DNA of 64,000 nt, taken from Spirochaetia bacterium. GTDB taxonomy: Bacteria; Spirochaetota; Spirochaetia; CAKZLE01. Below the pieces are notes generated by a model. That model searched no databases and had not been told where the DNA came from. It worked only from the letters and a program-made list of their open reading frames with translations. The translations under genes were made by a program, and so were the position numbers. Positions 42,021-48,492 of this stretch are shown here, piece after piece (position 1 is the stretch's first letter; the number at the start of each line of letters is the position of its first letter). The stretch lies in contig OY782041.1 of the NCBI GenBank assembly GCA_963677595.1, positions 4,161,223 through 4,225,222 on the forward strand, written 5' to 3'.

Positions 42021-44981
42021 TTGCAGGTAGGTTTTAAACACATTCTAATTCCCTTTCTCGTTATTCTCTTTATATCAGCTTGTGAAACTGTTCCAAGTGA
42101 TCAGTTTAAAATTGAAGAAAGACCTATAAACGAAGCAGCAACCATTGAAACTCCTCTTGAAACTCCTCTTGAATCAATCCAGCATTCATCTACCTTGAGG
42201 AACCAGATATCCAATAATAGCAGCATAAGCGATTCCTCTAATAAGCATCAAGAAAATACAAAGAGTGAATATCTTAATACGGAAATTGATTATTCCAACT
42301 TAGCTAATAATTCATCAAATCCTGAAGATCAGAAGATTGTCAATAATTATGATCTAAAAAGCATACGAGACAAGCAGTTTGAGCCGATACAAGACGAGCA
42401 ACATAAAACCATTATAAGTTTTGTCACAGAAAGCAATAATGTACTATCCGCAATTGAATCGGATAAGAATGATGTAAAACTTCAACCGGCAGTCCTAACA
42501 ACTACAAATAATAATCCTGGTTCGGAAAAAAGGGAATCAATAGTTTCAGAAATAAAAGAAGTAATTGCTGAACCAGTAAAAACAAATATACAGTCCCCTG
42601 TAAGTATTGTTGCATCTGATACAAGCAAATCAGATACAATCCCTAGAGATGATGGTCGTAGTTATGCTGGTATTTTCTTCTGGGGATTGGTAATTGGATT
42701 TTCTATACTTATTATTCTCCTGAATAAACGAGATAAGAAAACACACGATCAAGCCGTAATGGATACATCTGTGAGTTTTCAATCAAGCTATACTTATGAT
42801 GATTCTAACGATGATCTTCCAATGCTAGATTTAAAGACAAGTAAAAACACCGAGAAACAAGCAAGAACTTCCTTGAAGTCTTCAGATGATGTTCTTGTGT
42901 CTTTTAATATTTATAGTGGATTCGCAGAGCAACAGGAAAGCAAGAATAAAACGCCTGGAAGGTGGATGTCAAAGAATAAAACATTAAGAATACATGGAAG
43001 AGAAGTTTCTGGCGGATATTTTTATTATGGTGGTATTCTACGTTCAATTGATGGTTATCGTATTGAATCATCATTAGTGGATGATTCATATCCAATTAAA
43101 ACTGCGGCTATTGACCATACAGACAGTAGTTTAAAATACTATCCTTCATATTCCCAACTTTCCTCTTTATGTCGTGATACCTACCTAAATTGGTTGGCAG
43201 GAGATAGGTCGAATCGATCTACACCAATTGGATATGTATTCATATATTTCTATGGCATCGAGAGACGAATACTATTAGATCACCTTATCGAAAATAAGGG
43301 AAATAATGAGGAGTTCAAAGCACTATTTGATGAGATTAAAAGACTGAGAAGTGTCTTTAATGATAATAAATCATTCTTTTGGTATTGCACGAAATTACTT
43401 GAGATTATGTGTATCTATAAACCTAGCTTAGTATCAATTGATGATCAGGAGATGAGTTATGGTTATGATTCTCTTTTATTAAAATATCAAATATCACAAG
43501 CTGCTATAAATAATAAGCAAATCAGCTCTCATATTGCATTACATTGGCTGAAAAGCCTTTCTGAGTATAATCTTAAAACACCAGCGCGTAGATGTTCTGA
43601 AGAATTTGATGAGCTGTTTAGACTAGTATATACACAAAAGCATGGAGATGGGATTTTAATTAAGCCTAATAAATCCAGATTAAATATTCATTACTTCCCT
43701 GCTAGTGCCTCACTAAGTGGCATTAGATTTAAACCCTTAGATATTCCTGATCCAAGTATATTGAGAGGCCCTTCAAATAAATTAATTTCCATTGCTGAAG
43801 AGTGTACCCAGCAATTAGATTCTTATAGTCGGTATCTTGGTAGAAAAGACACCTCAAAGAATGATCTCAATGCGAAAATCCTATTACCAGAAATTTTATT
43901 AAAATCACATACCACAGAATTTATTGAAAACTTCAAAACTCAAGCTAATGATGTTTTAGTAAAACACAACGGAGTTATGTCAGTTAAGAATTTTTGGGAA
44001 ATCATTGATGAACCCTTACCTGAAAAGATAAATAAGAAAGAGTTTCTCTTTATGCATAGTATTGTTGATAAAGCTGGATATGATATGGTCCCAAAGCCAC
44101 ACCTGAATCATGGAAAACCACTTAAGGATGGATCAATTGTTCTATTCAATGAGAAGTTAGACAGTTCCTATGTTCCTACATTTGCTTATATTGAGATCCT
44201 AATTCATTTATGGCTAGGATCCATTATTGCAAAACAGGATGAGAGTATTCACGATAATGAACTTGAAGTTTTAAAATCGAGGATCGACTCTGAGAATCAA
44301 TTATCTCCTGCAGAGAAACAATCTCTTCATGCATATTTAATGTGGCGTTTACATAATACGGTAAGCTTCACTGGATTGAAGAAGCATCTTTCTTTACTAG
44401 ATCCTCAGACCAAAGAAACAATAAGTCAGAATCTCATTGAAATTTCTTTAGCTGATGGTAAAGTCACTAAACAGGAGATTACTCATTTAGAAAAAATATT
44501 CCAAATGTTGGGTATTGATAAATCACTTATTTCTACAAAACTCCATAATCAATCTACGGGAAATGGCCAAGAATCCTCAGTTAAAGCTTCTATAGTGACA
44601 ACTGACCATGTTGATGGTGAGTTCAAGCTAGATAATCGTCGATTAGAATTCCATGAGACACAGACAAAAGAGATTCAATCACTTTTAAAAACGATATTCA
44701 CAGAGTCAGAAGAAGAGACTAAGGAAATCATTCCTGATATAAACCAAGATGAAGGCATTCTGGATGAATCCCATCACAAACTCTATAAACAACTTATTAC
44801 ACAAGAAAAATGGTCTCGGGAAGAAGTTAATAATATTTGTGAAGAATTGAATTTGATGATCGATGGGGCAATTGAAATCATTAATGATTGGGCCTTTGAT
44901 ACCGTAGATTCTGCTGTTATCGATGATGATGAAGATATATATATTGATTTTGAAATAGTACAAGAATTGGAAGGTGAATGA
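42021..44981 (+). CDS. Membrane-anchored TerB_N / TerB / TerB_C domain protein (SngA-like)
   Basis: 986 aa, TTG start after AAGGAA. Lipobox ISAC (Cys21), TM YAGIFFWGLVIGFSILIILL (aa 215-234). TerB_N signature RWMSKNKTLRIHGREVSGGYFYYGG ... YYPSYSQLSSLCRDTYLNWLAGDRS..GYVFIYFYGIERR. TerB-like ISLADGKVTKQEITHLEKIFQMLGID. TerB_C-like WSREEVNNICEELNLMIDGAIEIINDWAFD. Confidence 0.85.
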   Translation: MQVGFKHILIPFLVILFISACETVPSDQFKIEERPINEAATIETPLETPLESIQHSSTLRNQISNNSSISDSSNKHQENTKSEYLNTEIDYSNLANNSSNPEDQKIVNNYDLKSIRDKQFEPIQDEQHKTIISFVTESNNVLSAIESDKNDVKLQPAVLTTTNNNPGSEKRESIVSEIKEVIAEPVKTNIQSPVSIVASDTSKSDTIPRDDGRSYAGIFFWGLVIGFSILIILLNKRDKKTHDQAVMDTSVSFQSSYTYDDSNDDLPMLDLKTSKNTEKQARTSLKSSDDVLVSFNIYSGFAEQQESKNKTPGRWMSKNKTLRIHGREVSGGYFYYGGILRSIDGYRIESSLVDDSYPIKTAAIDHTDSSLKYYPSYSQLSSLCRDTYLNWLAGDRSNRSTPIGYVFIYFYGIERRILLDHLIENKGNNEEFKALFDEIKRLRSVFNDNKSFFWYCTKLLEIMCIYKPSLVSIDDQEMSYGYDSLLLKYQISQAAINNKQISSHIALHWLKSLSEYNLKTPARRCSEEFDELFRLVYTQKHGDGILIKPNKSRLNIHYFPASASLSGIRFKPLDIPDPSILRGPSNKLISIAEECTQQLDSYSRYLGRKDTSKNDLNAKILLPEILLKSHTTEFIENFKTQANDVLVKHNGVMSVKNFWEIIDEPLPEKINKKEFLFMHSIVDKAGYDMVPKPHLNHGKPLKDGSIVLFNEKLDSSYVPTFAYIEILIHLWLGSIIAKQDESIHDNELEVLKSRIDSENQLSPAEKQSLHAYLMWRLHNTVSFTGLKKHLSLLDPQTKETISQNLIEISLADGKVTKQEITHLEKIFQMLGIDKSLISTKLHNQSTGNGQESSVKASIVTTDHVDGEFKLDNRRLEFHETQTKEIQSLLKTIFTESEEETKEIIPDINQDEGILDESHHKLYKQLITQEKWSREEVNNICEELNLMIDGAIEIINDWAFDTVDSAVIDDDEDIYIDFEIVQELEGE

Positions 44982-48492: not shown

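Follow-up and report, generated by a model that had tools for sequence, protein, structure and literature searches.

A predicted Shango (SngABC) operon with an extended SngA on an imported AT-rich cassette beside araA in a marine spirochaete

Within a 64-kb window of the chromosome of a marine spirochaete (contig OY782041.1; the window is the whole stretch of DNA analyzed, and all coordinates herein are counted along it), three adjacent plus-strand genes constitute what their sequences lead us to regard, with very little doubt, as a complete and intact Shango (SngABC) anti-phage system. A first-pass annotation of this DNA had reported three co-directional open reading frames (ORFs) joined by ATGA stop/start overlaps, and both the exact coordinates and the two junctions (sngA-sngB and sngB-sngC) were confirmed; the overlaps point firmly to translational coupling of sngA, sngB, and sngC. 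An AAGGA Shine-Dalgarno sequence lies 7 nt 5' of the sngA TTG start codon (42021) and is also present in a closely related copy of the operon carried by a phage-like element, hereafter the sister copy. The operon and its leader are laid out as follows:

41935-42020, plus strand: cassette leader and probable promoter region, kept in the phage-borne copy
42021-44981, plus strand: sngA, 986 amino acids (aa), TTG start (ORF call, Pfam, PADLOC)
44978-46294, plus strand: sngB, 438 aa (ORF call, PF10923, PADLOC)
46291-48492, plus strand: sngC, 733 aa (ORF call, PADLOC, PDB sequence search, AlphaFold2 [AF2] model with Foldseek)

Each of the three products had the corresponding Shango profile as its top PADLOC match, as the first-pass annotation had anticipated, and the margins over BrxD and BrxHI were wide. 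Specifically, ORF1 matched SngA (4.7e-82; aa 280-985 corresponding to profile positions 15-525 of 528), ORF2 matched SngB (2e-183, 608 bits), with BrxD second (1e-45, 154 bits), and ORF3 matched SngC (8e-266, 882 bits), with BrxHI second (1e-105, 352 bits). Most of the expected Pfam domains were likewise recovered, namely TerB_N at aa 319-522 (1.9e-43), TerB at 732-835 (2.3e-9), and TerB_C at 865-984 (3.5e-23) in ORF1, BrxC_BrxD/PF10923 over the full length of ORF2 (3.2e-151), and DEAD plus Helicase_C in ORF3; the Lhr-type C-terminal domain also expected in ORF3 was not, as SngC had no match to the Pfam Lhr C-terminal model, DUF1998, or Pfam DEAD_assoc. The sequence hallmarks of Shango were thus all found, namely a profile match for each protein, adjacent genes in A-B-C order, and intact motifs. 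Every motif quoted in the first-pass annotation is present at the positions given below, and the same gene order on one strand recurs at four loci from Gammaproteobacteria, including an Escherichia coli IncY plasmid (L086, L089, L090, and L091).

The two cytoplasmic partners show every sign of retaining working active sites. SngB carries a Walker A motif, GEYGSGKT, at 60-67 (K66) and a Walker B motif, LIVNLDEM, at 236-243 (D241/E242), both invariant in 6 homologues, and, with no sequence relative in the PDB, is identified by its profile matches as a BrxD-family (ORC/Cdc6-type) AAA+ ATPase. In SngC, AAGKT (49-53; K52), DEFH (155-158), SAT (193-195), and QRVGRSGRR (353-361) represent motifs I, II, III, and VI, which are invariant in 42 sequences (VI as QRxGRSGRR). 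A PDB sequence search with SngC returned the Lhr core (5v9x, 9e-29), followed by full-length Lhr (7lhl) and MrfA/YprA (6znp), and a Foldseek search with its AF2 model (pLDDT 70.7) returned MrfA (7e-21; 6znp), the Lhr core (6e-20, TM-score 0.60), and then Hjm/Hel308. The earlier description of this protein as "Lhr-like" therefore holds by sequence and by fold, the Pfam Lhr C-terminal model being the part that did not bear it out. SngC is best described as a predicted Lhr/MrfA/BrxHI-like superfamily 2 DExH helicase, with winged-helix, barrel, and alpha+beta domains in its C-terminal part; only helicases matched its model, which gave no sign of a hidden nuclease or other effector fold. A published helicase phylogeny groups SngC with BrxHI, DruE, and DpdJ. 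Further, according to a comparative study of BREX, BrxHI consists of a Ski2-like motor with a winged helix-turn-helix (HTH), a HAS barrel, and an Lhr C-terminal-like domain, and BrxD is a standalone ORC/Cdc6-type AAA+ ATPase proposed to load or activate BrxHI. Judged by these matches and motifs, the SngB-SngC pair is clearly homologous to the BrxD-BrxHI dyad, with its active sites predicted to be intact.

SngA combines a canonical Shango body with an unusual N-terminus. A lipoprotein-type signal (aa 1-21; lipobox ISAC within FISAC, Cys21) is followed by an acidic segment rich in S, N, T, and E (22-216), a transmembrane (TM) helix at about 217-240 (YAGIFFWGLVIGFSILIILLN, then KRDKK), a linker, TerB_N (319-522), a helical region without assignment (523-731), TerB (732-835), and TerB_C (865-984). 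Its recognizable motifs are YYPSYSQLSS (373-382), GYVFIYFYGIERR (404-416), ISLADGK...GID (808-833), and LMIDGAIEIINDWAFD (945-960). Hydropathy analysis gave exactly two hydrophobic segments (aa 1-27 and 214-240). Among 120 homologues of ORF1 (median length, 758 aa), at least 110 start with a hydrophobic N-terminal helix followed by K/R residues, as does the 769-aa SngA of the E. coli IncY plasmid (start, MELLKFLAAIFVIYLLFFRKKKRK), and the TM helix of the window protein aligns with this N-terminal TM helix of the homologues. Membrane anchoring is therefore the family norm, and for SngA itself the prediction of an anchor is firm. By the positive-inside rule, the TerB domains should be cytoplasmic, and topology rules likewise place aa 22-216 in the periplasm. 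SngA has no sequence relative in the PDB; an AF2 model of its cytoplasmic part (pLDDT 78.8) matched only small TerB-like structures (2h5n and 2ou3), and a Foldseek comparison with the PDB gave no hidden nuclease or other enzymatic fold in it.

The 216 residues that precede the TM helix are the only unusual feature of the locus. An ORF-calling artifact was suspected, given that M247 is the first residue of the closest homologue (P0001). This was rejected on five grounds: the conserved TM helix lies upstream of M247, there is no usable alternative start, the frame is open far beyond chance, the Shine-Dalgarno sequence is conserved, and the split ORFs of the sister copies stem from Ion Torrent assemblies with frameshift errors reported by their authors. 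Specifically, the N-terminal 216 codons stayed open in 0 of 20,000 shuffles, with 15 and 33 stops in the other two frames, and the in-frame starts ahead of the cytoplasmic part, a TTG within the helix and ATG247 past it, both lack a ribosome-binding site; the identical 986-aa product is also on record in NCBI/ENA. The predicted topology is coherent, in that export of a long segment lying in front of an N-out/C-in anchor would call for a signal peptide. The periplasmic segment had no Pfam match, and, among 1.84 billion representative proteins, the sister copy was its sole real match. We consider the extension to be a likely lineage-specific decoration, a disordered, fast-evolving orphan segment of about 195 residues. 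In a separate SngA homologue of 1081 aa (P0043), a different addition precedes TerB_N, consisting of a TM helix, an extended coiled stretch, and a WYL domain (PF13280); the SngA N-terminus seems to tolerate extra sensor-like modules.

The sng block differs sharply in base composition from its surroundings. Its G+C content is 35.3%, compared with 54-55% in the 10-kb flanks, and its individual 60-nt lines range from 23% to 45%, with 17% of them at or below 30%; the contrast noted in the first-pass annotation is hence real, its figure of 25-30% too low. At third codon positions (GC3), the difference is larger still: 0.24-0.29 in sngA, sngB, and sngC, 0.77 in araA, and 0.83 in the neighboring MMPL gene. 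Despite the proneness of AT-rich DNA to stop codons, all three sng reading frames are intact, over 2157 codons in total.

The sole close relative of this SngA, at 90% aa identity, was found in metagenomes from spirochaete-rich enrichment cultures of intertidal sediment (LQAE to LQAJ, SRR3166xxx). At the DNA level, this sister copy is 89.5-91.6% identical to the window over 41935-48496 (6.56 kb) and nowhere else, so that the shared cassette starts 86 nt 5' of the sngA start codon and ends 4 nt 3' of the sngC stop. Upstream of the sister cassette lie a type I restriction-modification (R-M) methylase and specificity subunit (HsdM and HsdS), an ImmA-peptidase/HTH repressor pair, a phage exonuclease (PHROG, 1e-128), a Gp2.5-like single-stranded DNA-binding protein, a DNA polymerase (6e-141), and a deoxyribosyltransferase; downstream of it lie VapE, VRR_NUC, a SNF2 helicase, DUF1492, HNH, and a small terminase subunit. 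Such gene content marks the element as temperate-siphophage-like, with the cassette in its replication module. The type I R-M genes beside the ImmA/HTH pair (L097/L098/L099, 1-3612) give the sister element at least two defense cargos, and an S-adenosylmethionine synthetase gene follows the small terminase subunit (L092-L095, 2400-12400).

In the sister assemblies, sngA is split into several ORFs. Since the break positions vary between assemblies, and since the underlying reads are Ion Torrent data for which the authors of the assemblies themselves reported frameshift errors, we ascribe the splits to such errors. With one base restored, the sister sngA is collinear with the 986-aa ORF of the window, and it has no start codon able to express the TM helix separately. 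Comparison of the two copies gave the following values:

SngA periplasmic segment, aa 22-216: 48% aa identity, dN 0.36, dS 0.61, omega (dN/dS) 0.58
SngA cytoplasmic part, aa 241-986: 90% aa identity, dN 0.044, dS 0.15, omega 0.30
SngB: 95% aa identity, dN 0.029, dS 0.21, omega 0.14

Cytoplasmic SngA and SngB are under purifying selection (omega 0.30 and 0.14, respectively). Indels within the periplasmic segment have lengths divisible by three, with one exception, and the raised dS of this segment suggests a swapped-in (recombined) or older sequence, beyond relaxed constraint; as a comparison of two sequences through a low-complexity alignment, this divergence is a lead rather than a result.

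The cassette is bracketed by a direct repeat of 188 nt that is derived from the 3' end of araA (93% identity, 6948-nt spacing; found by repeat search and confirmed by alignment). The island between the repeat copies (41803-48562) spans 6.76 kb, of which 218 nt to the left and 70 nt to the right of the sng genes are noncoding. Its boundaries are as follows:

41615-41802, araA read on the minus strand: left direct-repeat copy, 188 nt, an orphan comprising the downstream hairpin and the last 41 araA codons
41803-41934, no strand: left gap, 132 nt, without a match to the phage-borne copy or any compared locus
48497-48562, no strand: right gap, 66 nt, the phage-borne homology ending at 48496
48563-48750, araA on the minus strand: right direct-repeat copy, 188 nt, the functional araA 3' end plus 63 nt with the hairpin
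48626-50143, minus strand: araA, its own 3' end lying within the right repeat copy

An island with attachment-site-like direct repeats from the 3' end of its target gene at each side is the arrangement by which integrase-mobilized islands are recognized, and it is what we found here. Over the 41 shared codons, 5 of the 6 coding differences between the repeat copies are synonymous (chance about 0.005, by a binomial estimate with about one quarter of sites synonymous), which implies that both copies were parts of a working araA as they diverged. One of them probably came with the island from a foreign araA, a relative diverged by about 7%. The route fits either site-specific integration, with an attachment site mimicking the araA end, or a single crossover of a circular intermediate that carried an araA fragment; transposon-like ends were considered and rejected. 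Just 3' of the araA stop, the noncoding part of each repeat copy (41615-41662 and 48563-48610) contains a hairpin with an 11-bp stem, CTACCGGCACC ... GGTGCCGGTAG, and the repeat mismatches fall mostly in its loop; this hairpin may serve as the araA terminator or belong to a recombination site.

Searches for an empty site were made from the araA side. A scan of 185,579 species genomes with the AraA protein found relatives at no more than 69% identity, the best being metagenome-assembled genomes of Spirochaetia and Oceanispirochaeta (64-69%), which is consistent with the spirochaete-like host proposed in the first-pass annotation. These relatives keep the LacI-AraD-AraA order and have a different downstream region from which Shango is absent; at this distance, and with that difference, no nucleotide-level empty site was found. 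A degenerate 41-nt pattern of the araA 3' end had no match in JGI metagenomes, and exact look-ups of the window AraA and SngB returned nothing on record. Flanking repeats were absent at the Shango islets L086 and L089. Taken together, the GC3 contrast, the flanking direct repeat, and the approximately 90% identical copy in a phage-like element mark the cassette as foreign and mobile, in agreement with the horizontal acquisition that had been proposed. The flanking repeat, the phage-borne relative, and the first ~240 residues of ORF1 are points that go beyond the first-pass annotation.

Relatives of the module are common on other mobile elements. Members of the SngA clade elsewhere are likewise solitary three-gene islets, and the one examined for composition (L086) is richer in A+T than the DNA on either side of it. 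A search with SngB gave homologues at about 71% identity in 700 plasmid records (452 from Klebsiella and 144 from Salmonella; 545 conjugative), the SngC helicase search returned at least 8000 scored candidates, all with E values at or below 1e-20, and four IMG/VR contigs carry relatives, one of them beside genes for a myovirus head and tail sheath. A search of 50,697 curated phage genomes gave no match. In one IMG/VR contig (L083, 7633-9985), SngA is split into ORFs of 375 and 425 aa, and a nearby tail-sheath gene is also split, reflecting either a decaying prophage or sequencing frameshifts. On the E. coli plasmid (CP088401.1; L091, 2165-12226), a transposase of the IS110 family lies on one side of Shango and a tyrosine recombinase on the other. 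The plasmid is of the IncY type, to which the replicons of P1-like phage-plasmids belong.

The explanation that we judge highly probable overall is an intact Shango anti-phage operon on an imported, mobile, AT-rich cassette beside araA. Several observations weigh against this explanation or limit it. First, the reported protection by Shango is modest and phage-dependent (10- to 100-fold); it was about 10-fold against two phages in E. coli and 10- to 100-fold against many phages in Pseudomonas aeruginosa (Millman et al. 2022; Johnson et al. 2023), and phage protection by the spirochaete locus is a prediction from these homologues. Second, the codon usage of the operon, foreign and extremely unlike that of its host, could limit expression. 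Third, the island contains no integrase, transposase, or other recombinase gene, the sng genes filling 42021-48492, and the cassette has no terminal inverted repeats. Fourth, the window offers no defense-island context besides one PADLOC candidate ATPase 4.7 kb off. Fifth, the SngC model is of moderate confidence, with a poorly predicted RecA2 domain. Finally, searchable papers up to 2026 still describe the Shango mechanism as unknown, as the first-pass annotation had said, and offer "membrane surveillance" as a guess; because the mechanism is unpublished in that literature, any steps proposed for it are drawn from domain homology.

How the cassette arrived also bears on whom it serves. A possible, if doubtful, alternative is that the module acts for the mobile elements that carry it, through superinfection exclusion or an anti-plasmid function, and that the chromosomal copy is a stranded prophage remnant at the araA 3' end, deleted down to its defense cargo. 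A repeat mimicking the 3' end of a host gene is indeed the footprint of site-specific prophage integration, and the closest relative is carried by a temperate-phage-like element that has type I R-M genes of its own and an ImmA/HTH repressor module; however, the window has no phage gene, integrase, or other homology to the sister phage that would indicate prophage remnants, and the ~34 kb of sister phage DNA compared contains no araA-like attachment sequence (attP). Similarly, the relative that abuts myovirus head and tail-sheath genes and the abundance of plasmid records, most of them conjugative, speak for service to mobile elements, whereas the curated phage genomes yielded no match. A prophage deleted down to its defense cargo is an attractive candidate origin. 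The alternative as a whole concerns the origin and the beneficiary of the module, leaving the biochemical reading unchanged.

It is considerably less probable, and in our view very unlikely, that the operon came recently, with a codon usage foreign to this host, and is now silent or decaying there, with no useful expression. The GC3 of 0.24-0.29, set against about 0.8 in the host, and a promoter and terminator scan of the cassette that gave no excess over shuffled sequence are what such an operon might show, but its three ORFs remain intact over 2157 codons of AT-rich DNA, its motifs are invariant, omega relative to the closest relative is 0.14-0.30, and both the Shine-Dalgarno sequence and the leader are conserved. 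Least credible of all is a housekeeping or stress module for membrane-associated DNA repair or for metal/tellurite stress, built on a TerB protein and an Lhr/MrfA-type repair helicase: the solved structures closest to SngC do belong to the DNA-repair helicases Lhr and MrfA, the first descriptions of TerB came from tellurite-resistance operons, and the flanking genes are metabolic or transport genes rather than defense genes, but terZ, terA, terC, terD, and terE partners are lacking, the Shango profiles score far above any other, the cassette is foreign and mobile, and homologous operons protect two species against phages.

If the locus is a functional Shango operon, a plausible but tentative mechanism can be sketched. 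SngA, as a single-pass inner-membrane protein with cytoplasmic TerB_N, TerB, and TerB_C domains, may act as a membrane scaffold or sensor where phage DNA enters, holding or activating SngB, the BrxD-type ORC/Cdc6-like AAA+ ATPase. SngB would then load or switch on SngC, a putative Lhr/BrxHI-like 3'-to-5' DNA translocase-helicase, on phage DNA that is entering the cell or in early replication, and ATP-driven unwinding or protein stripping could block circularization or replication of that DNA. As the operon has no recognizable nuclease or toxin, host nucleases would have to carry out any destruction of DNA. A further and rather unlikely elaboration is that the SngA of this locus is an envelope-spanning sensor, with a lipid anchor at Cys21 and an acidic, flexible periplasmic tether of about 195 residues. 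In that case, the outward part might couple periplasmic or outer-membrane events, such as phage tail penetration or a peptidoglycan breach, via the TM helix to the TerB domains and the SngB/SngC motor.

The Shango family is already catalogued, detected by standard tools, and widespread, and the locus adds little as Shango. Its interest lies elsewhere. A periplasmic extension on an otherwise canonical anchored SngA is a possible handle on the Shango trigger, and, should SngA prove to span the envelope, the locus would be a natural variant in which the suspected "membrane surveillance" input is exposed and genetically mappable. Further, the same 6.56-kb cassette of promoter plus sngABC, about 90% identical, is seen once in a phage replication module and once in a chromosome, which makes this a clean and tractable case of a defense "moron" moving as a minimal unit.

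The sng genes are otherwise embedded among genes for MMPL and LolA-like proteins, araA, araD, a LacI-type regulator, and a GFO oxidoreductase. Beyond the ara operon, 4.7 kb from the Shango island, an AAA_14 + DUF4143 ATPase (53218-54669, plus strand) matches the PADLOC candidate defense family PDC-S01 (1.7e-125). A second stretch of lower G+C (17861-25909, minus strand; 38-49%, compared with about 57%) adjoins the rRNA operon and encodes two sulfatases, an ABC sugar transporter (solute-binding protein and two permeases), and an ROK regulator; it may be another acquired island, for the use of sulfated polysaccharides. The rRNA operon itself is complete (26167-31375, minus strand; 16S-tRNA(Ala)-23S-5S), with tRNA-Ala only in its spacer, and an orphan second 5S rRNA gene lies about 11.5 kb from it (14512-14625, minus strand).

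Comparison with known systems places the locus within Shango and apart from its neighbors in sequence space. The nearest of these is the BrxD-BrxHI dyad of BREX type 2 (Pgl), with which it shares a tightly linked pair of ORC/Cdc6-type ATPase and Lhr-like helicase (SngB to BrxD, 1e-45; SngC to BrxHI, 1e-105 over the full length). BREX type 2 itself can be excluded because PglZ, PglX, BrxC, and PglW were not found nearby, nor was there any PADLOC BREX match within 6 kb on the left or 14 kb on the right. In contrast to BREX, the sng locus has no methyltransferase and therefore no predicted epigenetic marking of self and non-self, and in Shango the TerB membrane protein stands in for the BREX core. 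The Ter tellurite operon (terZABCDEF) is likewise excluded because the other ter genes are lacking: the terZ, terA, terC, terD, and terE families are not among the flanking genes, the TerB-type domains of SngA being the only link. The repair helicases Lhr core and MrfA (YprA) share their motor domains and overall fold with SngC, but at only about 17-18% identity and with a different C-terminal end, and the gene for SngC shares a mobile cassette with those for an ATPase and a membrane protein. Bunzi (BnzA) and Dionysus (DinB) also have a membrane-associated TerB-domain protein with a proposed role in membrane surveillance, but their partner proteins are unrelated to those of Shango; Dionysus has a pore-forming toxin, whereas Shango pairs an ATPase with a helicase and has no membrane-damaging effector. 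With Shango itself (Millman et al. 2022; Johnson et al. 2023), the locus shares three proteins in the same order with nearly full-length PADLOC matches, identities to enterobacterial copies of about 71% for SngB and about 61-63% for SngC, and an SngA in which a membrane anchor is followed by TerB_N, TerB, and TerB_C. It differs in its longer SngA (986 aa against a median of 758 aa, with 216 additional N-terminal residues), in its spirochaete host, and in its solitary insertion beside araA rather than in a defense hotspot. We therefore regard it as a new member of the Shango family in a spirochaete, with one architectural addition and a well-resolved mobility footprint.

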